Source: Escherichia phage vB_EcoP_PW8
Sequence record: PQ362703.1
Length of the DNA stretch: 64,000 bases
Direction: 5' to 3' (one strand)
Shown here: positions 1-64,000 of the stretch, piece after piece
Layout of the letters: each line of letters starts with the position of its first letter
Position numbering within the stretch: the stretch's first letter is position 1
The notes under the pieces: generated by a model
Databases searched by the model: none
Seen by the model: only the letters and a program-made list of their open reading frames with translations
Told to the model about the DNA's origin: nothing
Program-made: the position numbers and the translations under genes

Positions 1-2135
1 TCTGAAAATATGCCCTCATTGTTCTTGAACGTTAGTCTTGCTGAAAAATCAGAGCTGTGCATGGAGGCTCCACTTGGTGTGTTAAGCCCAGAAACATAAA
101 CATGATTCGCCACGTCAGAGTTAGGGAATTTACTGACTGTCAATTCCCGAAAATCACCAGTGGTGTCTACCGTTATGTTACCAACTTGAGCTAAAGTGTT
201 GCAGCGTATAGTGCTGTTGTATAACTTACTCTTTATACCGGCGGTATCGGTTGTGGTGTACACACCTCCAATAAAACCCCGCATTTGAGCAGGCCCGGTG
301 TCGCCTGATGCATACGAAAGTGATGTTGCTATAGGGTCATTTTTCTGACCTATGTTTATGTCGAGGGAGTATTGTTCAAGGCTTATACCAGCTAGTAGTG
401 TGAATGCAGATATTTTTGACGAACATTTACCTACGCTTATGTTGCTAAAGTTTTGGGACAGCCCGTGCCCTACTGGGTCAGCGGTCCGAGGTAACAGTCG
501 TATAATCCTGTCACCGCCTGCTATAGTAGTTTCATCCGCAATTTCACCTATTTCCACAAAAAGGCGGTCATTGCCAAGCATTTCAAAAACACAAAAATCG
601 TTTGGGCGTGTTTTAAATACTACTCTATCAATTAAGATTTTTCCTACACCATTTCCGTTAACTCTAGTAGCTGTCACACCTCTGTTAGTCACATTGGTTA
701 ATGTTGTATTCCCTGAGATGTTTACATCAGCTATAAGACCGTTAGGGAAAATATTAAGTTCCAAACCAGTATACGCACCATTGATGTATGGGTTTGAGAT
801 TTCACAATTAATCAATCGAGGGACAGTGTACCCAGGCACGCTTTCATCTGCCTCTGGTTCAACATCTATACCAGATTTTGGCATAGCTCCCTCTACCCCA
901 CCATAGTCACCTATATTATAAATCTCGGGGTTAACTATCAGGACATTCTCTCCAGAGGTTAGGCTTATGCCATTACGGCGGCATTGTCGTATGACCGGTT
1001 TTTCTATGTAAATGTTTCCGGGTACTGTGCCATCTGTAGTGCCCCATTTCATGCCGATGTATATCCCATCTCCGAACATATTGGTATACAGTCCACCTAT
1101 AACTCGGATGTTGGAAGATTGGAGTATTGTAAGCCCCCAGCCATGTTCCCCTACTGTGGTATTTGTGAGCCGATCCCCCTCTAGTACAGGGTTGTAAATA
1201 TTTACGTTTTGAACACCATTTGCGACGTAAATGATGTGGCTTTGAGGTCTGCCTTGATTGGCCAGACGTAGTGCGCCGTCACCTACGAAACGTATTGTTG
1301 AGTTGCTAACACAACAAATAACTGACTTGAGGGCGTTATTACCAGGACTTACAGGGTCATCTGTAGATGCCATCAGACCCGTCATATTTTTATCAATAAT
1401 AAAATCACACGATAGTGCAACGGATGTGGTGTACGCTTTCATAAGAGAAGGGGTATCCGTACAAAAATCAGACGCGTATATCCCAGTCGCGGATGTTAAC
1501 TCCCACACAGCCCCATCGGCAGATGCTATTTTTGTAATTCCGTCAACCGCTCCGGTGGACCTGGAATACACGTAACGAACCCCAATGCATACAGTATCGT
1601 AGATGTCACTAATATTGGTGGTAGATATCTCGGAGATTTCCTTAAAGTAAGCTGATACCAGTCTTAAATCATTCCGCAGGTTTGGACCAGTCTGTGGCTT
1701 CCAGTCACCATTACCCACCGGGTTAGTCTCTGACGTAATAGTTACAGGTAGAGTTCCTAAGTAGGTGTAACCAATGCCATTATGGAACAATACTTCATTT
1801 CGTGTATTCACTACCAAATCAGTAGCAAATGAGTCGGATAGACACACAAATTCTCTACGTGTAGCAGCCAGTTCCCCCAAATCAACTGTACCTGCTGAAT
1901 GAACCAGAACTGCATGTTCATTGAGGCTTACGGCAGTGGTTTCTGCTGGAAGTACAGGTAATGAGTAAGCACGTTGGGTAGACTTATCATAGATTACTTT
2001 GTAACCACCTAAGTCTACACCTACAGAAAAGTAGACCACCTCATTCTGCTTAACACCAAATTTACGGGCAATAGCTTGCTTATTGGTAAGAATACCAGTA
2101 GAGCCTTTGCCACCTTGGGAGAATAATTCGTTCAT
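1..2135 (-). CDS. tail fiber/tailspike-like virion protein, 3' end cut by window start
   Basis: Uninterrupted minus-strand reading frame from ATG at 2135-2133 (AAGAGG RBS just upstream) to the window edge, so absent from the ORF track. Product is rich in short N/G/T/V/I repeats typical of beta-helix tailspikes. Read by eye. Confidence 0.5.
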   Translation of the reverse strand, partial: MNELFSQGGKGSTGILTNKQAIARKFGVKQNEVVYFSVGVDLGGYKVIYDKSTQRAYSLPVLPAETTAVSLNEHAVLVHSAGTVDLGELAATRREFVCLSDSFATDLVVNTRNEVLFHNGIGYTYLGTLPVTITSETNPVGNGDWKPQTGPNLRNDLRLVSAYFKEISEISTTNISDIYDTVCIGVRYVYSRSTGAVDGITKIASADGAVWELTSATGIYASDFCTDTPSLMKAYTTSVALSCDFIIDKNMTGLMASTDDPVSPGNNALKSVICCVSNSTIRFVGDGALRLANQGRPQSHIIYVANGVQNVNIYNPVLEGDRLTNTTVGEHGWGLTILQSSNIRVIGGLYTNMFGDGIYIGMKWGTTDGTVPGNIYIEKPVIRQCRRNGISLTSGENVLIVNPEIYNIGDYGGVEGAMPKSGIDVEPEADESVPGYTVPRLINCEISNPYINGAYTGLELNIFPNGLIADVNISGNTTLTNVTNRGVTATRVNGNGVGKILIDRVVFKTRPNDFCVFEMLGNDRLFVEIGEIADETTIAGGDRIIRLLPRTADPVGHGLSQNFSNISVGKCSSKISAFTLLAGISLEQYSLDINIGQKNDPIATSLSYASGDTGPAQMRGFIGGVYTTTDTAGIKSKLYNSTIRCNTLAQVGNITVDTTGDFRELTVSKFPNSDVANHVYVSGLNTPSGASMHSSDFSARLTFKNNEGIFS

Positions 2136-2183
2136 GTAGCAACCTCTTTGTTTTTCTATAGGCCACATTGTTGTGGCCTTATT

Positions 2184-3317
2184 TTACAAAATAGTAATAG
2201 GAATCAATGTCACTACTACGTTACCAGGTACATAAGTAAGCTGATCACCTGTTACTGAGCCTACCCTAACGTTAGTAGGTAGCGGAGGTAGCTTATATGA
2301 CTTCTGCTGCCCAGTGACATAAATGACAGCTTTGTCATTAAGATAAGTAGTAGTATCTACATCTAGGATTACCTCAGAGTCTTTAATATTAAACCCCCGG
2401 GCAATCTCTTGAATGGTGCGATCTGTAGCATAGATAGTTTCAATATTACCGCCGATAGAGACAATCAATACATCATCAGTTGCCAGAGGTTCAGTTAGGA
2501 ATATGCGATGATTATTTGGGTCAATTGTATAGGACTTACTTGCCAGTCCCTTGTATCTGCGTAAACCGTTAACATAGATGGCAGGCACATCAAGGAATTC
2601 GAAAGGTATATCAATTACCTGCTCACCACCTACTGCATTACCGTAGTTATATAGCCAGTTAACAACACGCCAATTGTCAATGGTTGGCTTATCAGGAGAA
2701 GCAGGAACTCCTGTAAGGAAAGCGATTACTTCCTGCCCAGCTTCTAGTTCCTGTGCTAAGGTAATTACACCAGTAGTAGGATTAAACTCAAAACCCTTGC
2801 CTACTATCTGAACAAACCCATCTACAGTAATGAAGGGAACACCTACTGTATCTACGGGTACATTTACAGTTGTTTCCCCACCAACAGCATCATAGCTAAA
2901 CAAGATATATGTACTACTTCCTTCAGTAGGTTGGTCACCAGAACTAGAACTAACAGCTACCCAAGAACCGGAGGCAGAAGGGTTATCTGGAATAATCCCA
3001 GTAAGGTCGCCATCAACGTAAAGGTAGTCAGTGATTATACGCTTACCATCTATAGCAGTTTCGTAAATACGGGCATACTTAGCATCAGTAGTAAGAGCCT
3101 TAAGTTCGGCCTCAGACTGTATGCCAATAACCATTCCATACTGGTTCAGAAAATCATACAGGAGTTTAAGGTTACCCAAATTACAGTACACAGTACGAAC
3201 CACATGGTAAGCATTACCTAGTAGTGCATCTACCATTGGGTCATTGGAACTGTTCTGACAGTAAGGATTGGACCAATCCTGCTTTGCATCGAAGGGGTTG
3301 TGTGCGTTCATCGCCAT
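2184..3317 (-). CDS. virion/tail-associated structural protein
   Basis: 377-aa minus-strand ORF between the tail fiber-like gene and the terminase, in the late operon. No motif recognised. Confidence 0.4.
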   Translation of the reverse strand: MAMNAHNPFDAKQDWSNPYCQNSSNDPMVDALLGNAYHVVRTVYCNLGNLKLLYDFLNQYGMVIGIQSEAELKALTTDAKYARIYETAIDGKRIITDYLYVDGDLTGIIPDNPSASGSWVAVSSSSGDQPTEGSSTYILFSYDAVGGETTVNVPVDTVGVPFITVDGFVQIVGKGFEFNPTTGVITLAQELEAGQEVIAFLTGVPASPDKPTIDNWRVVNWLYNYGNAVGGEQVIDIPFEFLDVPAIYVNGLRRYKGLASKSYTIDPNNHRIFLTEPLATDDVLIVSIGGNIETIYATDRTIQEIARGFNIKDSEVILDVDTTTYLNDKAVIYVTGQQKSYKLPPLPTNVRVGSVTGDQLTYVPGNVVVTLIPITIL

Positions 3318-48100: not shown

Positions 48101-51100
48101 CTGCTGTGCATAGTAACGGTCAGCAGGGTTAGTACTATCCGGGTTAGCCATGAATGATTCAACAGTCAGGTTCTTAGTAACATGCGTGTAGTATTCCTGT
48201 GCACGAGCCATAGCAGCAGGGTTAACAGCAGCCTCGGTAGCCAGTGCAGCAACAATATTGGTAAAGAGACGCTGTTCCTGCATATTCATGGTGAAGCCAT
48301 GAGCCTGAACATCACGGGTTACTTTAGTTGCATTTACTACTGCATCAGAGAACTTACCTTTACGAATTACTTGCTGTACTGGTTCTGAACCAATGTAGTC
48401 AGTAATCAGCTTATCAAATGTTTTCCCTAACTCTTCCAGACGGGTATTGTCACCATATGCCTTGTTATGGAACAGGGTAGTGTCTTTGGCTACAGCAGCA
48501 GTAGGAGCCTGTCCACGCATTACTACAGCAGAGTTAAACAGTAAGCCTGAGAACATATCATCTGCATTAGCAGGAGCTTTCTTACGTCCAAATACCAGAC
48601 GTTTGATTGCTTCATATACAGCCTGAACCATAGTTTTAAGTGCAGTGGTTTTCTTCTGCTTATTAATAAGTTCACGGTTAGTTAAACCCCAAGCCATGTA
48701 CTCATTCAGAGCAGCAGCTTTAGCCATCGCCGGTTCAATGAAGCCATTAGACAGGTGTCCATTAATGGTATTCAGTGCATCTGCATATGCTTCACGTACT
48801 GCCGGAGATTCATCCTTAACATCCAGAGCACGGAACTGGTTCATCAAATCTTCAATGTTCTGAACTGCTTCATTAGGAGTACCTTCATAGTGAGCCAGTA
48901 CAGATTCAAAAGTAGAAGCGTGTACCAATTCATGAACCAGAGTTTCTAAGGAAGGAGTAACTAAGTAGATGGTCTTATCTTCAAAGTTAGTCCAGCCGTA
49001 TGCATTACCTGCTTCAGCAGCTTCAATATCTTCTGGTGCTGGACGAGCAATGTTCTTCTCAATAGCGTAGGCATCCAGTTGAGAAGGCGTACCGTAAACA
49101 ACCTTATAGTCTTTAGCAGCAAGGGATTTCTGTATCTCTTTCAATACTGCTTGCTGTTCAGGAGACATCTCTTTAGCTAGTTTAGCAATGGCAGTATTAG
49201 ACAGCAGACGTACACCAGACTTCAGTACATGACCAACCAATTCTATTGCTGGTACTTCTTTCACTGGTTCTGCTTTAGCAGCACGTACTGCATCACGACG
49301 CTTGTTTAATTCAGCATCAAACAGTTCGTTCAGCTTAGCTACTTGCTGGTCTACGGTAAGCCCTTCCAGAGAGATTTTACCGTTGTTCACGTAAGGAGCA
49401 CCTACGGCAGCCATCTGGTCAACAGTGACCTGTACCTGGTCCATTACCTTGTGACGAATATCTACACCCAGAGCAATGTTACGCAGATTACGTTCAATCT
49501 GTTCAGCACCAACACGTAACAGGTCATCAGTAGCACCCTCACGCTGGTCATATTCCAGAGCAGACTTAGCAATAGCCTGTTTAGTTTCATCAGACAGTTT
49601 ACTGAAGTCTACGTTCTTCATGAACTTAGCGAAGGAGTCATAAACATTCTTGATAGGGTTTCCTTGCCAAGAAGTATATACAGCCTCATTAGCTTTACGA
49701 CTTGCATCAGTGATGTCATTGATACCAATGTTCATACCGTCAAAGATTTTCAGGGTATTCTTCGGAGCACCCTTCATAGTAGAAAGAGTCTGCATCATCA
49801 TGCCATCACCAGTACCGATGGTCATAAATGGAATACCTGCAACACCTGCCTGTGAAGGAGCATAGATGCTCATTGGCACACGCATACGATCATCTAAGTT
49901 GGTAGCCAATACTTGGTTAGCAACATCAGTATTCTCACTACCAGCAATGTAGAAAGTCTGTGAACCAGTCTCAATCATTGGAGCCAGTGGAGCTAAGCTA
50001 TTCTGGATTTCATTCAGTTCTTTCTGTGTTAAGAAATCACCTTTCTTCCATGTTGGGTCTTTTTCTTTTTCTGCCAGCTTAGCCTGTACTGCTTGTTGAA
50101 ACATATCCTGCAATACCAGTGATTGAATCTGAGTAGCCTTCTGCAAATTCTCAGTAGAGTACATCAGACCTTCGCCAACAGTATTTCGGATACCAGTACG
50201 CATTGGCTCAACGAATAAGTGAAGCATGTTCTCTTGTAAGTTCTTAAGAGCATTACCAGATACGGTAAACTTCTGGGGATCTAGCTTACCAGTCAAAGCA
50301 CCATCTACTTGTTGAATAGATAACTCACCTTTACGCATAACTGGAACATTACCAGTCAGTGCTTCCATAGAAGTAAGGAAAGTATCCAGCATAGCCTGAG
50401 CAGCAGCCTCAGATGCAGCCTCCTTACCAAACATTGCCATAGCTGGGGAAATGCTAGGGTCAGCAGCACGGGCTTGCAGAACGTCACTGAAGCGTTCGTA
50501 GATGGTATCAGTAATTGCACTTACCATTTTGCCTGCAATACCACGAGCACCGGAACCATAGATGGTAATGGTCAGTGGGTTTTTAGCTATACCACGTTTC
50601 AGGTCCAGAGTACCATCTTCATTCAGATTAAAGTCTTTAATGAACAGGTCCATTAACTTCTGGAGATGCTTCATCTGGTTCGTAACAGGAACGTTGTTAC
50701 GGTAAGTATTACGTAGCTCATTCAGTGCCTGTTGCAGACCATTAGTGGATGCTTCATACAAGTCAACACTATCCTCATGCGAATGATGCTCATTCATAGT
50801 CTTGCCAGCTTTACCGAAGAACAAGCCACCCTTAGCAGTATTCTTAATCCAGTCTGGGGTGAACTTACCACCAGTCATTAATACCATTGCGTTGATTGGA
50901 CCGTTGGTTACACCATCAGCTTCAACGTACAGCGGAGTATTAAAATTGGTACGGTCATCACTGTTAAGATAACGGGCATATTCCATAAGAGCCATGAGAG
51001 CTACGAATGATTTATCACTACCCAGAGAAGTCTTCAGAATATCCACTGCATTGGTTGGTAAGTGTCCAGACTTATCAAACTCAACCATCATATCAACAGC

Positions 51101-54100
51101 AGGTTTCAGTTTGCCTTCCAGGGCTTTAGTCAGCTCATCTGACATAACTTCACGAGACATTTTATGAACTTTGATGCCTAATGCTTGAGCCAGACCTAAC
51201 TGGAAGTCAGAGAAGGTTTGGCTGTTTTCATTACTCAAGTCGATAGTAGAGAAGGTTGGTAGGATTGCTTCACGTACCAGCTTGCTGGACTGTGGATTGT
51301 TCTTACCAAGCATCTGCATACGACCTACACGGGTCATGTTGTAACCATAGTGAATAGGTGTATCCAGTCCATTCTCTTGTTCCTTAATCTGATTGATTAC
51401 ACCAAACAAGGAATCATATGCCATAGAAACGGATAGGTTTTTACCTTCCAGAGATTTAGCAGTATTCACATTCAGCAATTCTGGGTTAAGAGCACCAGCA
51501 CCCATCAGTTCAAGAATGTTGTCACGACCCAATGCCTCATAGAAATTAACCATCGGCATATGTACACGGAACTCAGTAGCCTGTTCAGCTTTAAGAGCAG
51601 CTTTCTGTTCCGGGGTATTGCGGACAGCCGGGTTACGTAACTGAGTTTGAGCCACAGAAGGAATATCATCACCCAGATACAGTTTCTCTTCTGGTTCTAA
51701 AAGGACAGCTTCCTCAATAGCAGTGGGGAATTTATTAATGGCATCATTATCATCCAGCTTCTCAATGGTATACAGACCAATAGTCTTATTAGATTCTGGG
51801 TCAATCTCAGATACATCCAGCATGGACTCTTTAACTTCACCCATCTCAATAAGGGAAGACAGAATCTCTGTAGCCATTGCCATTGGGATACCCTTGGTAT
51901 AGCCCAGTGGTGCATTAGGATTACGATTCAAACCCCAATAGGATTCAATCTTTTGAGCCAGTGAGTTAGTAGCCTCAACCAGAGTCTGAGCATTCTCGAA
52001 GTCAGCCAGAATACCTTCTGGTAACAGAGATGCTTCTACTCCAGTAATAGCAGCTACGTCTTTCATATCTTTAACAGCAGCATTCTGTGTAGCAGTTAGT
52101 CGCCATTGCAAACCAGCAAGTACAGCAGTCTCTAGCAACTGGTCATTGAACTTAAAGGTGTCACCATCTTTCTCTACGATGTTAAGTAATTTACCACCTA
52201 CCCAACGGTTAGCCTCAGTTCCTTCTGCAAAACGTTTACCAACATTCTTGTTAGCAAGGAACTTAGCCAGACGGTCAGACAGTGTAGTCTTCAGAGTTTC
52301 ACCAAAAGCAAACAAATCCTGGTAACGCTTAATCACATCACCTGTAAGAGCGTTATTTTCTTTTTGAGTAAATGCTTCAAAACGAGCAGCAGAAGATAAT
52401 GCTTTCTTAACATCAGTCAAAGGAGATTCAGAACCAATGGTACGGGACTTAGGTTCCTCTGGCAGAGAAAATGCTTTAAGGAACTGGTTCGGTGTTTTGT
52501 CATTGTTATAGACATGGAACACTGCTTCCATTTCTGTTTTAGTTTCAGCTATTTCCTGAGTGTTATCCTCATTAGTGAGGGTAACATCCTGTTTTTCAGA
52601 CTGGTTCTCAGGTTCTTTTACAGCCTGTGGTTTAGACTCTTTAATAGTAGGTTCTGTTTTAACAGCTTCACTAACAGAGGGTTTAGTCTGTACAGTAGGG
52701 GTAACTGGTTCCTGTTTTGTAACAGGAGTATCATCAACCTGATTCACTGGTTCATTAGTCTGTTGGGATTGAGCAGCGTCAAGATTGCCCTGACGGAACT
52801 CTTTAACTACCTGAGCAGCAGGTTTGTTCAGACGTGAATCCAATGGGATAACTTTCACATGAGAAACATTAAGCTCCGGGTAAGCCGTAGCAAGTGCGTT
52901 AGCAATATCAGCTACGGTCTTGGCTTCCAGTCCTACTTGCTGGGCAAACTTAACCGACTTGGTATCATACGGATTGACACCGAGGCCAGTACGACTACGT
53001 ACCCATTCACGCGAGGAAGTAAGAGCCTGATAATGGACAGACTTATTCTTATCCGCATTCCCCGAAATCAGATGCTCATTCAACGCTCCGACCTTATTCT
53101 GCATGTGCTGGGCGAACTTCATAAAGTCGTCGAGATAAGCGGAAGCCAAATCGAAGTTACCAGAGTTGTACGCAGAACGAATGCGTTTAGCATGTTGCAA
53201 CGCAGAGTACTGGCCTTCATTAGAACGAGATTCGTCGGTTTTAATTTGTTTACTAACAATGTCTTGAGGACGTAAGCCTAGTTCTTCTGCTTTAGCGTCA
53301 AACTCTCGTGCTCCTTGCAATAAAGCAGCAGCAGATTGCAGGGCAGCACGCTGACGATTCCCAAGTGTAATCTTACCTTCACTTGCATGTTTCAGAACCA
53401 TGTTCACTGAATCTGCATCCAGTACTTCTGGAGACATGTCAGCAGCCATGGCAATGCTGTTTGCCTGAGCTTGATTAGCTTCTTCAGTAGCTTTCAGTTT
53501 ACCTGCTTCAGCCTGTTCCTGAATCATGGAATGAATAGCACGGAATGCACGGAGTACCTTCGGTGTATTCTGAACGTTAGCCATCAGACCGGAGAACTGG
53601 TCAACAATATTAGCAGCAGGAGAACCTTGTTCCAGATTAGCTAATGCACCAGGGTCACGGTTAATGAAGCTATCCATAGACATGATGTTGTCATACATCT
53701 GGATTGCAGCTTCCATTTGAACGTTAGGGTCTTCAGCAGTATTAACCAGGTCAGCCATCTTCTGAATAGCTTCAACACGGTTAGTGGAACCAGAAACAGC
53801 TTCACGGATTGCTGGACTAGCTTGCTCCAGTTCTACTGGGTCAAACTTCATTACCTGAGTTAAATCAGCAGCGTACTGGGTAGCAGCAGCTTTCTCTTCT
53901 GGAGTAATATCCATTGCATCTACTGCTTCCTGTACAGTTGCTTGTGCTTGTTCTGCTTGAGCAGTAGCTTCCTGTGCAGCAGCATTAACTGTAGCGTCTG
54001 ATACAGGAGATGCTTGTTCATTACGCTTAGCAACTTCTTCACCACGCTGAACCAGAATGTTAGTAATAGGGGAGGCAGCTTTTGCTAATACATTACCCGC

Positions 54101-55507
54101 CAGAGAAGCACCAGCCAGGGTAGTACGTACAGCAGGACCAACGGCAGCACCAGCAGCCTTAACAGTTGCACCAGGAGCTTGAGCAACTCCAGCAGAACCA
54201 AAGCCATACAATGCACCAAGACCAGTTTGTTCACCCACACCTTTAAGCAAATCACGCTTAGCATCTACATTACCCTGAATTGCCTTGTTCTGTGCAAACT
54301 GACTTGTACCAGACTGGATACCTTCTTCCACAGTTTCACGGAGCAAGTTAGAACCAGCACCAGCCAGAGAACCTACCTTAAGTGGGTTAAGTTCAAACTT
54401 AGATACCAGTGGGCCAGTAAGAGCAGCAACCGGAGCAGTTAGGCCAGCAGCAGTGATACCCGTTTCAGATGCAGTCTGACGACGAGCTTCTTCAGGAGTT
54501 AAGCCGTCTTTAATGTGTTGTTGGTATACAGGAGATTTAGCAGCCAGTTCACTGAATGGCATTTCCATAATTTCATTAGCAGTCTGTTGGTATGCACCAC
54601 CAGCTTCCATACCACCAATTGCTATAGCAGGTGCAGCAATACGCCCGGTAGCTAATGCAGTACGTGCAGGACGCGAACCTAACTCAGCAGCTAAGGTAAT
54701 ACCCTTAACAGCTTTATCACCACCTACCATTACTTTACCGAGTGCAGATACACCACGGATTAATGGACCACCAGTAAACAGAGAACCAACACCTTCAGCA
54801 ATACCATCTGTAGCAGCCATGTCATTGGATAAGGTGTTAGCAACAGAATCATAAGCATCACGACCAATACGAGACAGAGAAGCAACGAGTTCACTTTCCC
54901 CTTTAGCAATATCCTGCTTATAGAGTTTCTCATTTTCCTGTGCAGAGATTACATTCTGGTTCTGTACTACATTACGACGAGCATTCAATGCATCAGACTG
55001 TAGGTTGTGTACACCTTTATTCAACCAGTCAAGACTGGAAGCAATGGATGCCCCGGCATTATCATTGACCAAGCCTGTGCCAAGAGCAGCAATGCCCCCA
55101 AGGGTATTAGCAACACCAAGACCAACACCAGAAAGGGTATCGCCAAATGCTTCTGCGTTAGTACGTTGTTTAGATAAGTCCTGGCGTACAGCATCAGCAG
55201 CATTAGCTCGACTATTAAGAATCTGTAGACCTTGCTCATTACCATACTTATTAATGATTTCTAATGGGGAGGCCTGAGTGAAATCTGCCTGAAGTGAACC
55301 TGGTTCAAATGCACCAGCACCTAAGTTACCTGCACGACCTGCCTGTAATTGGTAAGCGTTCTGTGGGGTTAATTGGAAAGGGTTTTGCCCTTGTTCAGCT
55401 TGCTTCCGGGAGGTTGCAGTAGAGACATCGACTTGCTTAGCATTAGTGATGCTGTCTGCGAAACCTGCCAGACGGTCAAATGTTGACATAGCATGTTTCC
55501 TGTTCAA
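45131..55507 (-). CDS. virion-encapsidated RNA polymerase (N4 vRNAP-like)
   Basis: Single 3458-aa ORF. Central region has T7-like catalytic motifs (YVEADGVTNGPINAMVL and KIFDGMNIG). Confidence 0.9.
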   Translation of the reverse strand: MNRKHAMSTFDRLAGFADSITNAKQVDVSTATSRKQAEQGQNPFQLTPQNAYQLQAGRAGNLGAGAFEPGSLQADFTQASPLEIINKYGNEQGLQILNSRANAADAVRQDLSKQRTNAEAFGDTLSGVGLGVANTLGGIAALGTGLVNDNAGASIASSLDWLNKGVHNLQSDALNARRNVVQNQNVISAQENEKLYKQDIAKGESELVASLSRIGRDAYDSVANTLSNDMAATDGIAEGVGSLFTGGPLIRGVSALGKVMVGGDKAVKGITLAAELGSRPARTALATGRIAAPAIAIGGMEAGGAYQQTANEIMEMPFSELAAKSPVYQQHIKDGLTPEEARRQTASETGITAAGLTAPVAALTGPLVSKFELNPLKVGSLAGAGSNLLRETVEEGIQSGTSQFAQNKAIQGNVDAKRDLLKGVGEQTGLGALYGFGSAGVAQAPGATVKAAGAAVGPAVRTTLAGASLAGNVLAKAASPITNILVQRGEEVAKRNEQASPVSDATVNAAAQEATAQAEQAQATVQEAVDAMDITPEEKAAATQYAADLTQVMKFDPVELEQASPAIREAVSGSTNRVEAIQKMADLVNTAEDPNVQMEAAIQMYDNIMSMDSFINRDPGALANLEQGSPAANIVDQFSGLMANVQNTPKVLRAFRAIHSMIQEQAEAGKLKATEEANQAQANSIAMAADMSPEVLDADSVNMVLKHASEGKITLGNRQRAALQSAAALLQGAREFDAKAEELGLRPQDIVSKQIKTDESRSNEGQYSALQHAKRIRSAYNSGNFDLASAYLDDFMKFAQHMQNKVGALNEHLISGNADKNKSVHYQALTSSREWVRSRTGLGVNPYDTKSVKFAQQVGLEAKTVADIANALATAYPELNVSHVKVIPLDSRLNKPAAQVVKEFRQGNLDAAQSQQTNEPVNQVDDTPVTKQEPVTPTVQTKPSVSEAVKTEPTIKESKPQAVKEPENQSEKQDVTLTNEDNTQEIAETKTEMEAVFHVYNNDKTPNQFLKAFSLPEEPKSRTIGSESPLTDVKKALSSAARFEAFTQKENNALTGDVIKRYQDLFAFGETLKTTLSDRLAKFLANKNVGKRFAEGTEANRWVGGKLLNIVEKDGDTFKFNDQLLETAVLAGLQWRLTATQNAAVKDMKDVAAITGVEASLLPEGILADFENAQTLVEATNSLAQKIESYWGLNRNPNAPLGYTKGIPMAMATEILSSLIEMGEVKESMLDVSEIDPESNKTIGLYTIEKLDDNDAINKFPTAIEEAVLLEPEEKLYLGDDIPSVAQTQLRNPAVRNTPEQKAALKAEQATEFRVHMPMVNFYEALGRDNILELMGAGALNPELLNVNTAKSLEGKNLSVSMAYDSLFGVINQIKEQENGLDTPIHYGYNMTRVGRMQMLGKNNPQSSKLVREAILPTFSTIDLSNENSQTFSDFQLGLAQALGIKVHKMSREVMSDELTKALEGKLKPAVDMMVEFDKSGHLPTNAVDILKTSLGSDKSFVALMALMEYARYLNSDDRTNFNTPLYVEADGVTNGPINAMVLMTGGKFTPDWIKNTAKGGLFFGKAGKTMNEHHSHEDSVDLYEASTNGLQQALNELRNTYRNNVPVTNQMKHLQKLMDLFIKDFNLNEDGTLDLKRGIAKNPLTITIYGSGARGIAGKMVSAITDTIYERFSDVLQARAADPSISPAMAMFGKEAASEAAAQAMLDTFLTSMEALTGNVPVMRKGELSIQQVDGALTGKLDPQKFTVSGNALKNLQENMLHLFVEPMRTGIRNTVGEGLMYSTENLQKATQIQSLVLQDMFQQAVQAKLAEKEKDPTWKKGDFLTQKELNEIQNSLAPLAPMIETGSQTFYIAGSENTDVANQVLATNLDDRMRVPMSIYAPSQAGVAGIPFMTIGTGDGMMMQTLSTMKGAPKNTLKIFDGMNIGINDITDASRKANEAVYTSWQGNPIKNVYDSFAKFMKNVDFSKLSDETKQAIAKSALEYDQREGATDDLLRVGAEQIERNLRNIALGVDIRHKVMDQVQVTVDQMAAVGAPYVNNGKISLEGLTVDQQVAKLNELFDAELNKRRDAVRAAKAEPVKEVPAIELVGHVLKSGVRLLSNTAIAKLAKEMSPEQQAVLKEIQKSLAAKDYKVVYGTPSQLDAYAIEKNIARPAPEDIEAAEAGNAYGWTNFEDKTIYLVTPSLETLVHELVHASTFESVLAHYEGTPNEAVQNIEDLMNQFRALDVKDESPAVREAYADALNTINGHLSNGFIEPAMAKAAALNEYMAWGLTNRELINKQKKTTALKTMVQAVYEAIKRLVFGRKKAPANADDMFSGLLFNSAVVMRGQAPTAAVAKDTTLFHNKAYGDNTRLEELGKTFDKLITDYIGSEPVQQVIRKGKFSDAVVNATKVTRDVQAHGFTMNMQEQRLFTNIVAALATEAAVNPAAMARAQEYYTHVTKNLTVESFMANPDSTNPADRYYAQQKFDTIMGANNIEFDAQGRSSLLPTFVGLAMVSEEVRKVLAEIPVMKADKKSGNTVDAMLTNIGTAAMASLNARVAGDTKATNVQEGMDALAQTIMQTSLNAESFYDSVATPTGNAIDRANQYLVDSIDVLSTRALEGAREVAANTKNPLVKGAAHAAQLVAAIATEKNGSIVAEGVMAAMNQGKVWQPFHDLVNDIVGRTKSNASVYDLIKAVRAQVQADRQQFREHLPTAIASKFSRRLTNEEWKAMHTGMGKTDLAVLRDTMSLGEIRDLLTDQKIVDREVNKLEADLQKQAGRNWPLISRKSKQLAQYMINGTVGNNLLRNATAISRLLGERKTTRSVVDVAQLDKLITLYALEAMGKTDREMLSSLAQTEIEGMDFATSYLVGQRKDEMAKAKSDSRATLNQYKGYIPSETKQGVNLIVAEDSQFADLIEKSYVRLGTYQGSSANRGPARSYYFAPVQAQAPFSQGILQNVRNTAGGVDLGTGFTMGTMVAGRITDKPSVDRITKALARGERGNEPLLPVYDANGNVVAYEQSIDPNMLKHIEGENHLARAIGVWRGRQVEEAKAQRFNDMLIENLHSMYENDLKMSASNKSQYVNLLGSKLDPVTADALKLMNSETRQKAESLFGPGELWVRRDMLNDALGYRAASVGDAWSGNSRWSPETLDTFKKAMLGVFGNRAYKYVMGGENLVQNLVKEAKTLIVVKSVVVPAVNFLANLYQMVARGVPVKNIAKSIPQKTAEINQYLKSRLRQVDAEAELRAATNPNQIRKLKAEIQSITDSHKRLSIWPLLEAGEFSSIADAGIGRDDILITEGKLHEYMEKLADKLPKSVRNAGRYALITKDTALFQGIQKTVEYSDFIAKAIIYDELTQRKGKTREEALGRVTEEFINYDRLPGRFRGYMESVGLMWFYNFKIRSAKVAVSMIRNNPVHAAMAMLAPTPTMFGNVGLPIQDNIFSIAAQGNLGYSFGFGQGLRAHTLNPWLNLTN

Positions 55508-55583: not shown

Positions 55584-57548
55584 TTACCGATTTTGTCTTG
55601 GTTGCATATACTCAGGCAAACCTTGTGCCTGACGTAGGTAACGTGCAGCACGTTCTTCATCTTCCTTGGCTCGTGCTCTGTCCACACTAGCCTGTGACCG
55701 GAAACCTCTTGGAGCCAAGTTAGATGGGTCTGCTTGAACTTGAGCTTGTGCAGCTTGTAGCATTGCAGCAGCTTTAGTAACAGCTTCCTGACGAGCGGGC
55801 AACAATGCAGTAAGACCTGTCTGTCCGGTGTTAATCTTGTTCTGGGTATTTGTCAGTGCAGCTACAGCAGCATCATAAGCAGTCTGTGCTGCCTGAATAT
55901 TCTGCATAGCCTGTGCACGTCCAAGATTACGTACACTGCCTTCTAGTGGTTCACCTCGTTGTACGCCCTCAATTAACTGGTCTACCAGACGGTCATTAAG
56001 ACGCATACCATTACCGGCTTCGTTAGTAATGAATGGGTTAACTGCATCAATAGCACGACTAATATAACCCTCTGGAACACCTGTCTGTGCACGTTGCATA
56101 ACAGCAGCAGCCATAGCTGGAGACATATTCCCACGTTGAGAAATATCAGTTAGTCGGTTAAGTACCCAGTTACGGTCAGCACCCTTAAAGTCACCATCCA
56201 GCAGACGATTAGCAATCTCACCTACTGGAGTATTATCGGTGACAGTACCCAGGAAATCGGTATTAAGACTACCGGTATTATCCTGCATAGAGCGAGTACC
56301 AATCATACCTTGAGCCAAGGTAGATACTGCCTGATTTCCTTGATTATTCTGAATCAGAGCGAATGGGTCAGCTCCTACCTCAGCTTGAGCAATAACAGGC
56401 TTAATCTGTTCCCAAGTCATATCCTTATAAGCACCTGGAGTTGAGTTAGGTAAAGCAGCCCAGGTATCTTTAAGGTTACCGTTCTTACGAGCCTCAAAAA
56501 TGGCCTTACCAATCTTCTCCTGGTTCTCAGGGGAAAGGGGCTGGTTCTGCCAATCTGAACCAAGAACTTTGGGAGCAAAGTCTTGTAAAGTAGCCTGGTT
56601 AATCTGGAATGCACCAACAGGGGAAGCACCCTGATTAGTCTTCATGACATCCTGGTGTTTAATTACATCACCAATACTCATTTGAGTAATAGGAGTAGAT
56701 GTACCGGCAAACTGATAAGTAACATCATAAGGAGAACCCTGGCGAGTACCAGCAGTACCAGGAGCAGATGTAGCACCGACATTATTGCCGTAAACACCCG
56801 GGTATGCACGGGCTAGTATTTCCTGTAAACGTGCCTGTGCAACAGGGGACAGATTTTTACTATATGCTTCTGCCAACAGACGAGCATCGTTGGGGTTCTC
56901 AGCGCCACGGGTAATTTGTGACATTACACCCATAGCTGCTTGACTATCCGCATCATTACGTTGAGCCACACCCAAATCAAAACGGTTCTGTGCTTGGTTA
57001 ATAGCAGCACCACCTTGTCCTTGGAGACTACTCAACAATTCCAGTTGTTGGTCAGCAGGAAGTGCAGATAATGCATCACGGGTTTGACCTAATGCAGTAT
57101 TAATACGGTTCTGGTCACCAGACTGATAAGCCTCAGACAGTAATCGAATAGCTGGTGAAGCATTATCTAGTGCAGAGTTAACATCCTTTAAGCGACCGAA
57201 GGTATAAGCATTATAGTCGTTGGTCCCCTGTTGACCTTGTTGAGTCAGAAGAGTACCTGCTCGCTCATCCAGATTCTGAAGAGTACGCTGACTTACCAAT
57301 GAAGGGTCAACTCCCTGAAACAATGCACCAGATGCCAGAGCATTACGATACTCAGTAGGGTCTTGATACTGCATAGCATTCATCATGACGGCATTGCCAG
57401 CCTCCTGCTTGGCAGCGTTCTGGAAATTACCCAGTGCATCACTTAAGCCGGAGGTGGCGTTACCAATCATGTTTCCAAATGTGCGAATGTTGTCACCAAC
57501 TCCAGAGAAGTTAGGTGCATCAACATTACGCCATGTTATCTGACTCAT
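55584..57548 (-). CDS. virion protein, hypothetical
   Basis: 654-aa ORF directly upstream of vRNAP in the late operon. Gln/Ala/Asn-rich. Confidence 0.45.
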   Translation of the reverse strand: MSQITWRNVDAPNFSGVGDNIRTFGNMIGNATSGLSDALGNFQNAAKQEAGNAVMMNAMQYQDPTEYRNALASGALFQGVDPSLVSQRTLQNLDERAGTLLTQQGQQGTNDYNAYTFGRLKDVNSALDNASPAIRLLSEAYQSGDQNRINTALGQTRDALSALPADQQLELLSSLQGQGGAAINQAQNRFDLGVAQRNDADSQAAMGVMSQITRGAENPNDARLLAEAYSKNLSPVAQARLQEILARAYPGVYGNNVGATSAPGTAGTRQGSPYDVTYQFAGTSTPITQMSIGDVIKHQDVMKTNQGASPVGAFQINQATLQDFAPKVLGSDWQNQPLSPENQEKIGKAIFEARKNGNLKDTWAALPNSTPGAYKDMTWEQIKPVIAQAEVGADPFALIQNNQGNQAVSTLAQGMIGTRSMQDNTGSLNTDFLGTVTDNTPVGEIANRLLDGDFKGADRNWVLNRLTDISQRGNMSPAMAAAVMQRAQTGVPEGYISRAIDAVNPFITNEAGNGMRLNDRLVDQLIEGVQRGEPLEGSVRNLGRAQAMQNIQAAQTAYDAAVAALTNTQNKINTGQTGLTALLPARQEAVTKAAAMLQAAQAQVQADPSNLAPRGFRSQASVDRARAKEDEERAARYLRQAQGLPEYMQPRQNR

Positions 57549-57560
57549 GATGGATTCCTA

Positions 57561-58004
57561 TTAACGAGTTAGCTTATTAGCTGCAATGTAAGCATCAGCA
57601 GTAGATTGGTCACGGTTTTCTGCTGTAGCACGACTACGAGCACGGTCTTCCAGTGCAGTGTTATAAGACTTAATCTGGTTATTCAGATTAGTGTTAGTAA
57701 CACTCTTAGTAAAGTTCAACTGGTCTTTAGCTAACTTATTGGCTTGGAAACCACTATAGATATTAGCCAATGAACCAAGTGCACCCAGTCCTAATTGGAA
57801 GGTAGGTACGTTCATACCTAACTGACTAGCCGAGCCAGACATGAAAGTATTGGGAGCAGATGTACCAAAATTCGTACTCATACCAATAGCTGCACCTGGG
57901 TTGTAGTTCATAGCTGGGGTATTAAAGTTCTGATTGTTATTAGACATCCAGGACATAGCAGCTGGCTGTGGGATTTGGTTGCCTGTTAAGAATGATAAAT
58001 CCAT
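57561..58004 (-). CDS. virion protein, hypothetical
   Basis: 147-aa ORF in the late operon. Confidence 0.4.
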   Translation of the reverse strand: MDLSFLTGNQIPQPAAMSWMSNNNQNFNTPAMNYNPGAAIGMSTNFGTSAPNTFMSGSASQLGMNVPTFQLGLGALGSLANIYSGFQANKLAKDQLNFTKSVTNTNLNNQIKSYNTALEDRARSRATAENRDQSTADAYIAANKLTR

Positions 58005-58017
58005 GGGGATTCTCCTG

Positions 58018-60672
58018 TTAAACTAGGTCGGTATTAAGGGTCATGTCAGAGTAGTTACCTATCATGTCTAGAGACAAGTCAGCTATATCTGAACCAGTCA
58101 TGAGAGTACGTGATAAGAATGAATCCAGTGACTCCATTGACACGAATTGCATAGGGTCAATTACACCCTGCCCAGCAGTACCAAACATTTCTTCATACTG
58201 CTTATTGATTGCCATCATATCAGTGTTGTACTGCTGCATTACTTTCTCTGCTTTCTGAATAGTAGCAGCCGTAGATGCATTAATATACTGACTAATACCA
58301 TTACCTACTGAACTGGTAAGCTGCATGATGTTTTGTGCATTCATCATCTCACCTGCTAGGGTGGATAGGGATGTACCAGTAGACAAAGCAGTACCAACAT
58401 TCATAGCTACCATTGAAGCAATAGCTGCAATAATAAAGCCTAATTTATCACCGAACAGTGCAGTGGATACTTTTGTAATAATGGATACCAGAATCATTCC
58501 AGCAATAGCGTTTGCTACAGCACCAACTATCACGGCAGCTAATCCAACAAAGCCAAGTGATGCACCAACTGCACCATATGCTCCAAGTATGCCTGCACCA
58601 CCAGCACCCATAGTGAATACGGATACAACGACAGCAACTACAACAACCACAATCTTAAAAGCAGATGTTTGATACCACTTCTTCTTAACCTTCTTATATG
58701 AGTTCATCACTAAGTAGGAGCAAGCAGTGGATAGCTGAGTACTTCGAACCAGTGACATTGAACGGTAGATGTTAGTATGTAGTGGAATAATGAATCCGCT
58801 CTCCTCTGCATCACCCATTGCTTCGGCGACATCAATGTGCACTGACTTATTCTTATATACCCTGTTGTTGTGGTTTAGGCCCAGTATTCTAAGTTTACGG
58901 TAGGTATTATTACCATCCTGCCAAAGTAACTCATACTCCTGCATTGAATAGAATGTGTACGTTACCTCAAGTTTCTTAGAAGAGCCGGAGTTACGGGAGG
59001 TACGCATATTCTTACGAGTAAGGGTTATATCCCCTGCATACCTGGATCGAAGCTGCCCCTGTTTAGCACCAGACCATGCTTGCCCTGAGTGGGTAGTTTC
59101 AAATACATAGTTCCAGCCAATAGTCATGTCATACTTGTAATGCTTATTACTATGTACCCTAAATTCTCGCTTAGGTATAACAGGATATTCAGGTAGTGGT
59201 GGCGGTGTTCCAATAGTATGCCCTCCAGTCATATTCCACCATTTTACATATGCATCAACTGCATCATTAGCTGCCTGATAACCTGCAATTACTGCTTCCA
59301 AAGTTGGGTAGGTTGGGTCAGGTGGAAATGCTTCTGTAGCCATCTGAAAGAAACGGTAGATGTATTCCTTAGCAGTATCCTCTGGAGAATTAAGAGATAC
59401 ACCGAATGTGCCATAAATGTATTGGATATCACCTATGTCCTTATTCTTCTTAAGCTCAGTTATTACATTATTGAGTTTGCCACCAGTAGCTTTATAAAGA
59501 GCCTTTTTACAGTGAGGGTAGATTGGGTCATTCTCTACCCATTGCTTATCATTCCTGATTGGAATGAATGGGTAGAATCGATTATCAGTAGCTTCAGTCT
59601 CAAACAGTGAATCCAGTGCAACGTTACCAGAGTTCTGCTTATAGATAAGCATCTTAGGTGTACCAACAGCAGTCATCTCTGTATCAGTACGAGTAGTCTG
59701 GGATGAATACTTACGAACCAGTGTCTCTGTGGTTGTAGTGATTGTATCGGTACGAGTAACTCCACCACCTAAATCAACTACATTAGTAGTTACAGAAGTA
59801 CTAGACTGAACCTCACCAAACTTTTTATGAGTCATTACCCGGTCAGATACAACTACAGTCACATCATTAGGTTTCTCAGTAAACCCTCTGCGGTAAACCT
59901 TAACGTAAGAGTTCCAGTTATCTACACTTGGTTCAGTGACTGTACTATCCTCATCCGGTCTGTCATCAGAGTAAACAGAATGAGTATGTATAGTCTTAGT
60001 AAGGTTAGTTGTATTAGCTGTTGTATCACTTGATACAGTATTCCATAGCAAAGTAGAAGGTAAGTCACTCTCGCTATCATAAACAGTAGTCGGTCCTACT
60101 ACCGGTGGATTGATAGTAGGAGATTTATAGAAAGAGTAGTCAACATAGAGATACAAAGCACCTGGTTCAAAGTTAGTTGGTGTGAATTTAATAGTAGAAC
60201 CTCCATCCAAGGAGGTCATAGTAATTTCATTGGTATCTTCATCAATGTCTATGTCGAATCGTTCCATGATTCGACTCGGAGCATTCTCATAAAGATACTG
60301 GTCACACCATTGCTCAAAATCAGCAAAGCCAATCTCTGCTGCCTGAACATAAACAGATTCTCCAGCAGGGGGCGTAATTTGACCCTCTATAACAGTAGGG
60401 TCAATCTTAGCCAATACACCCAATGAAGAACCAGCCATACCTATTTTTGAATCATAGTGGTTCTTACTCCAGCTGGAGAACAATCGCATACGAATACCAG
60501 GTCCATTCAGATAACTATCAGAGATAGTGTCTGCCATAGTGAATCCTGTATTGGAAACAATGTTACCAATGACTACAGTCTTCATATAGTTAGGACGTTT
60601 GTGTATGTCCCCTGCCATATTGTAGACAGAGGATGCTACGTATACTTTGGTCTTACTACTGAATAAGCCCAT
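58018..60672 (-). CDS. large virion protein with C-terminal hydrophobic Gly-rich segment
   Basis: 884 aa. About 100 residues of Gly/Ala/Val-rich hydrophobic sequence near the C-terminus. Confidence 0.45.
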   Translation of the reverse strand: MGLFSSKTKVYVASSVYNMAGDIHKRPNYMKTVVIGNIVSNTGFTMADTISDSYLNGPGIRMRLFSSWSKNHYDSKIGMAGSSLGVLAKIDPTVIEGQITPPAGESVYVQAAEIGFADFEQWCDQYLYENAPSRIMERFDIDIDEDTNEITMTSLDGGSTIKFTPTNFEPGALYLYVDYSFYKSPTINPPVVGPTTVYDSESDLPSTLLWNTVSSDTTANTTNLTKTIHTHSVYSDDRPDEDSTVTEPSVDNWNSYVKVYRRGFTEKPNDVTVVVSDRVMTHKKFGEVQSSTSVTTNVVDLGGGVTRTDTITTTTETLVRKYSSQTTRTDTEMTAVGTPKMLIYKQNSGNVALDSLFETEATDNRFYPFIPIRNDKQWVENDPIYPHCKKALYKATGGKLNNVITELKKNKDIGDIQYIYGTFGVSLNSPEDTAKEYIYRFFQMATEAFPPDPTYPTLEAVIAGYQAANDAVDAYVKWWNMTGGHTIGTPPPLPEYPVIPKREFRVHSNKHYKYDMTIGWNYVFETTHSGQAWSGAKQGQLRSRYAGDITLTRKNMRTSRNSGSSKKLEVTYTFYSMQEYELLWQDGNNTYRKLRILGLNHNNRVYKNKSVHIDVAEAMGDAEESGFIIPLHTNIYRSMSLVRSTQLSTACSYLVMNSYKKVKKKWYQTSAFKIVVVVVAVVVSVFTMGAGGAGILGAYGAVGASLGFVGLAAVIVGAVANAIAGMILVSIITKVSTALFGDKLGFIIAAIASMVAMNVGTALSTGTSLSTLAGEMMNAQNIMQLTSSVGNGISQYINASTAATIQKAEKVMQQYNTDMMAINKQYEEMFGTAGQGVIDPMQFVSMESLDSFLSRTLMTGSDIADLSLDMIGNYSDMTLNTDLV

Positions 60673-60673
60673 A

Positions 60674-61516
60674 TTAGTTCAGCCCGTTGTTAGACTTCAG
60701 CTTGGTTAAAATGGTATCAATACTTGCGTTAGTGAAACCATTTGGTGGGTTCAAGCCTTCATCAATAGTCTTCTGTGTAATCCATGCATCAGTAAACAGC
60801 TTAGATGCTTTAACCTCTGCATCACGTTGGTAAGAAGTAATCTGTTGAGAGTACAGTTCTTTCTGTTTACCTACAGAACCAGTAACAGTAGCACCATCAC
60901 TACGGGTATCTAGTGTCTGTGCACGTTGTGCTTCGGTCTGCTCAGTAATCAGCTTAAGCTGTTGAGGTAACATCTGATTAGCATTAAACAATGCAGCACA
61001 GTACGTCTCAGACTCAGTAGCAATCTTCATCTTAGTAAGAGCGTATTCACTCTTAGCAGACAGTGCCTGAATCTTAGCTAGTACAAACTGAGCTTTAGAA
61101 GTAGCCAATGTAACACGTGCAGTAACTGCCTGAATCTGTGCCAGTGCAGCAGCCCAGTATGCCTGGTCACGACCAAGTAAGAACTGAACAGCATTACTCA
61201 TGCATGATTCCATCATAGCAATGTATGCTTTGGTATATTCACCACCTGTAATACGGTTAGCTTTAAACTCAGCTTTAAGGTGATTATGTGCAGATTCCAT
61301 TAATGCATCAAACGTACCACTACCACCTACTTCACGAGTAGTAAGAGATTCATTGGTTATTTTAGTAATGGCACCAAAGATTGGAGAACCATCCCCACCA
61401 GGGATATCCCATTCGGGGCCAGACATATCAATATCAGGAAGGGCAAAGTCATCACCCTTAGTTAACTCTTCAAGGAGTCGGTTAGCTTCTACCTCAGCAG
61501 AACAAGACATAATCAT
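60674..61516 (-). CDS. virion protein with predicted coiled-coil
   Basis: 280 aa, Ala/Gln/Lys-rich heptad-like region. Confidence 0.4.
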
Positions 61517-63514: not shown

Positions 63515-64000
63515 TTAAAGACTACCCGGTACTGGGAGTTTAGCGAAATCTTCATCACTCATAGCGAGTGGGTTTACAATAGGTGTTGCTTTACGTGTAG
63601 CAGCCCGATTAAGGGAAGCTGCTTTAGCTTGCTCACTGTTAGCCAGAGTCTGCTTAGGTCGTGCTACACGCACTACCGGCTGAACTGCTGGTTTAACTGC
63701 TTGTACCGGTTCAGGCTTAGCCACTTGGTTAAATGCACCCTGCTGTGCAAGGAGATTACCAACGTGGTTATAAGCCTGAATAAATGGAGTACCTACCGGA
63801 ATCTGGCCTAACATCTGAAGACGATTCACTTCATTAGTAATGATGTCATAAATACCATTCTCACGTTGTTCATGAATGGTATGAAGTAAGCCACGATTCT
63901 GATAAAGAGCATCTTTACTGGCAGCATCCCATGTCGAGCTAATAACACCTAATGTAGCTTGTCCTTCTTGAGTAGACTTTAAGTCGTCAATTTCGGTTGC
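63515..64000 (-). CDS. virion protein, 5' end beyond window
   Basis: Minus-strand frame stays open from the stop at 63515 to position 64000. The track shows only the part from an internal GTG at 63829. Confidence 0.4.
   Translation of the reverse strand, partial: ATEIDDLKSTQEGQATLGVISSTWDAASKDALYQNRGLLHTIHEQRENGIYDIITNEVNRLQMLGQIPVGTPFIQAYNHVGNLLAQQGAFNQVAKPEPVQAVKPAVQPVVRVARPKQTLANSEQAKAASLNRAATRKATPIVNPLAMSDEDFAKLPVPGSL

Follow-up and report, generated by a model that had tools for sequence, protein, structure and literature searches.

The Gly/Ala-rich hydrophobic segment of an 884-residue protein of Escherichia phage vB_EcoP_PW8 as part of the predicted hydrophobic knot of a probable N4-like tail plug

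The 64,000-nucleotide stretch of Escherichia phage vB_EcoP_PW8 analysed here (sequence record PQ362703.1; hereafter the window) encodes on its minus strand an 884-amino-acid (aa) protein that carries a hydrophobic Gly/Ala-rich segment toward its C-terminus and whose gene is labelled 'hypothetical protein' in close relatives. The original prediction had taken this segment (58380-58700, equivalent to aa 658-765) as the mark of a membrane-inserting ejection or channel protein for delivery of the 3458-aa virion RNA polymerase (vRNAP), and the gene does lie, as it had stated, near the vRNAP gene, three genes upstream of it. We estimate a probability of roughly 0.8 that this 884-aa product serves, in a single copy, as the tail plug of an N4-like podophage of the Gamaleyavirus group, orthologous to N4 gp53 and DEV gp74. 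The flagged feature is probably the hydrophobic knot that has already been described for the Schitoviridae tail plug and is, as such, already known. The parts of the gene and its product, in order from the N-terminus, are as follows.

58018-60672, minus strand: gp53 ortholog, putative tail plug protein of 884 aa (coordinates include the stop codon).
60505-60588, minus strand: N-terminal half of the predicted hydrophobic knot, aa 29-56, by homology to N4 gp53 residues 29-56.
59653-60060, minus strand: predicted beta-sheet 'feather' protrusion, about aa 205-340, with modelled strands across aa 211-334 (confidence score 87-93).
58669-58695, minus strand: basic/aromatic flank KKVKKKWYQ, aa 660-668, directly ahead of the hydrophobic run.
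58513-58653, minus strand: C-terminal half of the predicted hydrophobic knot, aa 674-720, equivalent to N4 gp53 residues 670-716.
58351-58512, minus strand: second hydrophobic stretch, aa 721-774, with an LFGDK motif and a helix at aa 744-762.
58021-58350, minus strand: polar C-terminal tail, aa 775-884, presumed lumenal, with a conserved end motif at aa 841-870.

The hydrophobic stretch proper of this open reading frame (ORF) spans the 101 residues aa 674-774 and is composed chiefly of Ala (19), Val (18), Gly (16), Ile (10) and Leu (9). Gly and Ala together make up 35% of it, compared with 12% of the remainder of the protein, and the residues G/A/V/I/L/M/F make up 79% compared with 37%; a hydrophobic Gly/Ala-rich segment of about 100 residues is thus really present, as had been noticed. 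Its only charged residues are K734, D742 and K743, whereas 21% of residues elsewhere in the protein are charged, and it opens with a charge-free run of 60 residues (aa 674-733) that 2 of 2000 shuffled versions of the protein equalled or surpassed. The membrane-like character ascribed to the segment was likewise borne out on transmembrane scales. Its Kyte-Doolittle maximum in a 19-residue window is 2.52, the Hessa apparent insertion free energy summed over 19 residues is close to zero at aa 674-692 and at aa 714-732 and reaches 1.95 at aa 744-762, and the Eisenberg mean hydrophobicity is 0.70-0.78 with a low hydrophobic moment. By comparison, the minimum Hessa sum is at least 4.4 in all other virion proteins of the gene block, with minima of 4.4-11.7 for the orthologs of gp50, gp51 and gp52 in the window. 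Small-xxx-small-xxx-small motifs are also found in the stretch, and on these classical measures aa 674-774 looks like two to three transmembrane helices. On the opposite strand, a 115-aa ORF (58325-58672, plus strand) runs antisense to the segment; it very probably reflects the scarcity of stop codons in the reverse complement of Gly, Ala and Val codons and is not a gene.

In an alignment of 37 homologs (30-94% identity), aa 601-750 rank with the most conserved regions of the protein, with a mean column identity of 0.58-0.69 compared with 0.26-0.50 across most of the protein middle. The two knot halves average 0.47 (aa 29-56) and 0.58 (aa 674-720) against 0.44 for the whole protein, and aa 721-774 are conserved to the same degree as the part of the segment that corresponds to the resolved knot. 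Since the hydrophobic stretch is conserved across homologs, it is not a compositional accident. Charged residues make up 0.1% of aa 691-720 over all 37 homologs, G707 and N721 are invariant, and at least 90% conservation is seen at K663, W666 and Y667 in the basic/aromatic flank and at G694, G697, G703, G710, A713, G717, A724, G741, G745 and N781. Several of these positions fall into a stripe of small side chains with a small residue every 3-4 positions (703, 707, 710, 713, 717, 721, 724). Such fixed Gly, Ala and Asn positions suggest tight helix packing in place of a generic lipid-facing surface. The stripe itself would be expected in a tightly woven knot and is equally compatible with the association of helices within a membrane, and it does not discriminate between the two.

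The sequence relationships of the protein point to the tail plug. A PDB sequence search matched it to 9YFT chain FA, 'Gp53' (885 aa), with E=0 and 1073 bits, aligning residues 1-883 with residues 1-883, and secondly to 9ZE4 chain M, 'N4 gp53-like protein', at 2.1e-17, where the match is strongest over aa 602-867, the hydrophobic C-terminal module. These two plug proteins are the only significant PDB matches. The unnamed PHROGs family phrog_2220 covers the full length of the protein with 1099 bits, while Pfam and NCBIfam scans of the protein returned no family. No sequence or fold similarity was found to ejection proteins of the T7 gp14/15/16 type or to those of DEV (gp73/72/71) and N4 (gp52, gp51 and the gp50 N-terminal domain). 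Over the C-terminal region the PDB alignment runs with an offset of 4 residues relative to N4 gp53, and aa 674, equivalent to N4 residue 670 at which the knot starts, coincides exactly with the beginning of the charge-free run. Identity to the N4-type sequence P0053 is 55% overall, 71% over aa 29-56 (where helices are predicted at aa 29-40 and 46-55), 68% over aa 674-720 and 72% over aa 721-774; both sequence elements of the knot, N-terminal and C-terminal, are therefore present and conserved in the 884-aa protein. The most variable part is the feather (conservation 0.29), which is 40% identical to the N4-type sequence and gapped in shorter homologs. Homolog lengths peak at about 700-800 aa and at about 850-950 aa, the shorter ones being those that lack the feather region. 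In a search of 1.84 billion cluster representatives the aa 601-884 module was found in 561 proteins at E<=1e-30, and it is C-terminal in every near-full-length protein (about 700-920 aa) among the matches listed.

The structural meaning of these matches comes from Escherichia phage N4, whose asymmetric tail tip was solved by cryo-electron microscopy (cryo-EM; Bellis et al., Nat Commun 2026, PMC13434306; PDB 9YFT). There a single copy of gp53 serves as the tail plug, with most of the protein outside the tube; six short helices built from residues 29-56 and 670-716 make up a 'hydrophobic knot' by which the 12-mer gp54 tail tube is corked. The N4 gp53 model covers residues 9-724; the next ~160 residues run into the tail lumen with no resolved density, adjoin gp52 and may help to form a poorly resolved double ring with it. 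Domains D9-D10 of gp65, the receptor-binding sheath protein, grip the plug; tube, sheath and plug stand in a 12:6:1 symmetry mismatch, and the plug is seen on full and emptied particles alike (PMC13434306). In Pseudomonas phage DEV the tube is plugged by gp74, which the gp56-gp55-gp54 receptor-binding fibre keeps in place, and deletion of gp56 leads to virions that lose their DNA (Nieto Noblecia et al., mBio 2026, PMC12892993). Mass spectrometry detected gp53 in N4 virions (PMC13434306) and gp70, a 96 kDa protein described as 'similar to N4's gp53', in virions of Moo19, in which the density at the tube tip was weak and left unassigned (Sci Adv 2024, PMC11654681). Through this homology to N4 gp53 and Moo19 gp70, the labelling of the 884-aa protein as a virion protein is supported.

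Compared directly with N4 gp53, the 884-aa protein is nearly the same length (884 and 885 aa), can be aligned end to end and occupies the same position between the gp54 tail tube gene and gp52; the beta-feather, both knot halves, the hydrophobic continuation and the C-terminal motif are common to both. The plug of N4 is held by gp65 D9-D10 (paired with gp64), in contrast to St11Ph5, a close relative of the present phage, which has gp63.1 and gp66 tailspike/fibre genes. DEV gp74 (PDB 9ZE4 chain M) is more distant: it has 740 aa, lacks the beta-feather and shows 12-14% identity in structural alignments, and it differs in being held by the DEV fibre. The G7C-like Shigella phage Moo19 supplies the best PDB match for the tail tube ortholog of the window (9D80_C), yet in G7C-like phages the plug has not been modelled and appears only as weak density at the tube tip. 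More broadly, the P22-like tail needles (P22 gp26, Sf6, HK620) offer a functional likeness, as distal stoppers that seal the tail channel after packaging and are removed on receptor contact.

To model the fold, AlphaFold2 (AF2) was given the 37-sequence alignment. The resulting model was confident for aa 1-665, and the fold of the 884-aa protein agrees with the solved plug. The reading of the segment as a membrane helix had been set against its possible prediction as a buried beta-core; AF2 predicted helices in it, at low confidence, and the N4 structure has short alpha-helices at the equivalent residues, buried within the tail tube.

Several observations weigh against the tail-plug assignment. 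The identification is drawn wholly from orthology. AF2 did not reproduce the knot, and its confidence (predicted local distance difference test, pLDDT; the score given for the feather above) was 30-50 over aa 688-884, too low for the model to be a reliable guide to the packing of the segment. Mean-field direct-coupling analysis (DCA), run on 243 homologs (effective number about 202) after removal of gappy columns, since indel columns dominated otherwise, showed no sign, at low power, of contacts linking aa 29-56 with aa 674-720, for which the highest-placed pair ranked 4365 of 63691. The hydrophobic segment extends ~55 residues past the resolved knot, and no segment of gp50, gp51 or gp52 in the window is as transmembrane-like, which plugging alone does not obviously explain. 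Finally, gp64 and gp65, the latter being the plug holder of N4, are not annotated in St11Ph5, and the equivalent region of the present phage lies mostly beyond window position 64000. St11Ph5 has gp63.1, gp66 and gp67 annotated in its corresponding locus (MG208881.1, 55800-72444).

The setting of the gene agrees with a tail-plug assignment. The DNA of the region is 91-93% identical to that of the Escherichia/Shigella phages nithesis, pSb-1, St11Ph5, Bp4 and others, and St11Ph5 is classified in Schitoviridae, Enquatrovirinae, Gamaleyavirus (G7C-like N4 relatives). On the minus strand the genes encode, in order, the major capsid protein (gp56), a 213-aa protein (gp55), a 280-aa protein (gp54), the 884-aa protein (gp53), a 147-aa protein (gp52), a 654-aa protein (gp51) and the 3458-aa vRNAP (gp50). 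This gp56-gp55-gp54-gp53-gp52-gp51-gp50 order is conserved, and the neighbours match solved counterparts from N4, Moo19 or DEV. The genes that bear on the function of the 884-aa protein are the following.

60674-61516, minus strand: tail tube protein, gp54 ortholog, 280 aa, the dodecameric tube that would be plugged by the knot.
57561-58004, minus strand: gp52 ortholog, 147 aa, ejection protein (tail lumen, membrane channels); PDB match 9YF4_OA, '16.5 kDa protein', 4e-45.
55584-57548, minus strand: gp51 ortholog, 654 aa, ejection protein; PDB match 11MN_A, '66 kDa protein', 8.5e-130.
45131-55507, minus strand: vRNAP, gp50 ortholog, 3458 aa; the syntenic St11Ph5 gene is annotated 'virion RNA polymerase, gp50'.

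For the 280-aa protein the PDB matches were the Moo19 tail protein 9D80_C (5e-151), N4 Gp54 (9LC0/9YF4/9YF5/9YFT; 2e-123) and the DEV tail tube gp75 (8e-20), and the 147-aa protein also matches the DEV 'N4 gp52-like protein' 8VXQ. The vRNAP ORF was called from a TTG start (MNRKHAMSTFDRL..., 55487-55507, minus strand), and an ATG (MSTFDRL...) lies six codons downstream; this downstream ATG may be the true start, which would give a polymerase of 3452 aa.

We propose that the 884-aa protein, by orthology, does the same as the N4 and DEV plugs. In the mechanism that we envisage, aa 674-720 and aa 29-56 would come together as a tight bundle of short helices packed through Gly and Ala, the hydrophobic knot, seated where the dodecameric gp54 tail tube opens distally, while the globular core and the beta-feather would remain outside the tube. 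This external core would presumably be held by the receptor-binding apparatus. On the other side of the knot, aa 721-774 and aa 775-884 would extend up the tail lumen, probably contacting gp52. Because the knot would seal the tube, DNA and the lumenal ejection proteins would be kept in the virion. Engagement of the host receptor by the receptor-binding protein is the presumed trigger by which the plug would be pulled sideways from the tube, and the opened tube would then let out gp52, gp51, gp50 (vRNAP) and the DNA. The location, copy number and knot of the plug, and its presence on empty particles, are taken from N4 cryo-EM, and genome retention from DEV genetics. Under this mechanism the earlier idea that the protein belongs to the machinery releasing the vRNAP holds insofar as it would be part of the apparatus that controls release; the further idea of a delivery channel does not, as the N4 ortholog is a cork.

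A more elaborate reading, which we regard as unlikely though less so than the remaining alternatives, is that the module serves twice. It would be a cork in the virion and, once dislodged, the exposed knot and the lumenal aa 714-774 would partition into the outer membrane, where the helices would hold the tail tip in place or perturb the bilayer locally, letting gp52 insert and start the ejectosome. The near-zero Hessa sums of two 19-residue windows, the high Eisenberg values with a low moment and the basic KKVKKKW flank would all suit such a step, and in an independent study of N4 lysis gp53 is likewise described as having predicted transmembrane domains (TMDs). The orthologs of gp50, gp51 and gp52 in the window are less hydrophobic than the plug segment, yet their N4 versions enter bilayers or nanodiscs: channel formation by N4 gp52 and gp51 was measured in planar bilayers, and the gp50 N-terminal domain inserts into nanodiscs (PMC13434306). 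The abstract of that paper assigns gp51 to the outer-membrane complex and gp52 to the periplasmic tunnel, an assignment that its results text and model figure reverse; the roles of gp52 and gp51 used here follow the results text. It is also the C-terminal ~160 residues of N4 gp53 that stand in the lumen ahead of all ejected material, beside gp52, and the conservation of aa 721-774 at the level of the resolved knot fits a role for this part. Against these points, emptied N4 particles show the plug back on its tube, and therefore it need not leave the tail, although those particles were emptied in vitro and not into a cell. In one copy, three or four helices could anchor a tail tip; they could not line a channel of ~35 A. 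The conserved Gly, Ala and Asn positions, moreover, are needed equally by a protein-protein knot. We therefore consider it doubtful that the hydrophobic module is a two-state device, first a virion cork and then an outer-membrane pilot (especially through aa 721-774) that seeds the gp52 pore; if it were, the plug would be the first component of the ejectosome and not a passive stopper.

The small-residue pattern of the segment invites a comparison with channels. Channel-forming membrane proteins contain transmembrane glycine-zipper motifs, (G/A/S)xxxGxxxG, and the 884-aa protein resembles them in having small residues 3-4 apart on hydrophobic helices (G703, G707, G710, A713, G717, N721, A724). 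It would differ in the use of these residues, which in N4 gp53 pack a soluble-phase, protein-enclosed knot and not a bilayer-spanning oligomer. That the 884-aa protein is itself ejected and inserts into the membrane as the channel through which the 3458-aa polymerase passes, as was first supposed from the transmembrane-like segment and from the adjoining gp52-gp51-gp50 ejection cassette, is very improbable. The equivalent N4 residues plug the tail tube, and the N4 ortholog is a single-copy, mostly external plug that is kept on empty particles; a protein present only once, and retained after the particle has emptied, cannot form the conduit. Experiments placed the channel role with gp52 and gp51 and found membrane insertion for the gp50 N-terminal domain; the orthologs of these three proteins adjoin the 884-aa gene. 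No bilayer or channel activity of gp53 is reported in the N4 paper (PMC13434306). The PDB matches to plugs only, and the lack of likeness to known ejection proteins, argue in the same direction.

Equally improbable is a role for the hydrophobic helices inside the infected cell, where they would tether new gp53 to the inner membrane while tails are assembled, or affect the timing of lysis: so hydrophobic a segment made in the cytoplasm would be expected to enter the inner membrane unless shielded, and a rapid-lysis line of N4 carried gp53 Q98R, but the N4 virion structure gives the segment a definite position and the lysis genes are located elsewhere (gp60-gp63 in St11Ph5). A link of the segment to lysis was rejected, as Q98R rebuilt in a clean N4 background failed to give rapid lysis (N4 lysis study).

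With the tail-plug assignment preferred, a gene that close relatives carry as 'hypothetical protein' can be named tail plug, and its hydrophobic segment offers no ground for a membrane-protein or holin-like annotation. The case also illustrates how a segment of strong transmembrane character can prove to be a structural element enclosed by protein. Of specialist interest are the means by which G7C-like phages, apparently without the sheath of N4, hold and release the plug, together with the role of the ~160 lumenal residues, which include the second conserved hydrophobic stretch, and any contact of the exposed knot with the outer membrane during infection.

Two further regions drew our attention. 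The extreme C-terminus of the 884-aa protein (aa 841-884; 58021-58152, minus strand) carries the motif ES.DSFL.RTLMTGSDIA.MSL, in which E847, F852, R855, T856 and G860 are invariant and the mean column identity over aa 841-870 is 0.65. This motif, which belongs to the portion not seen in the N4 map, may be where the protein contacts gp52 or the tube lumen. At the beginning of the window, a tail protein resembling gp66 of G7C seems to be split into two ORFs, a 377-aa ORF (2184-3317, minus strand) and a second one (1-2138, minus strand). The first matches only positions 1-378 of the 1048-position tail-protein profile phrog_12242 (2.6e-219). The second starts at about 2138 (MNELFSQGG...), runs past the start of the window with at least 712 aa, and shows a weak match to the right-handed beta-helix family PF13229 (21.5 bits, under the Pfam cutoff). 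In St11Ph5 gp66 is one gene of about 945 aa, and the split ORFs look like an arrangement of an adaptor plus an exchangeable tailspike.

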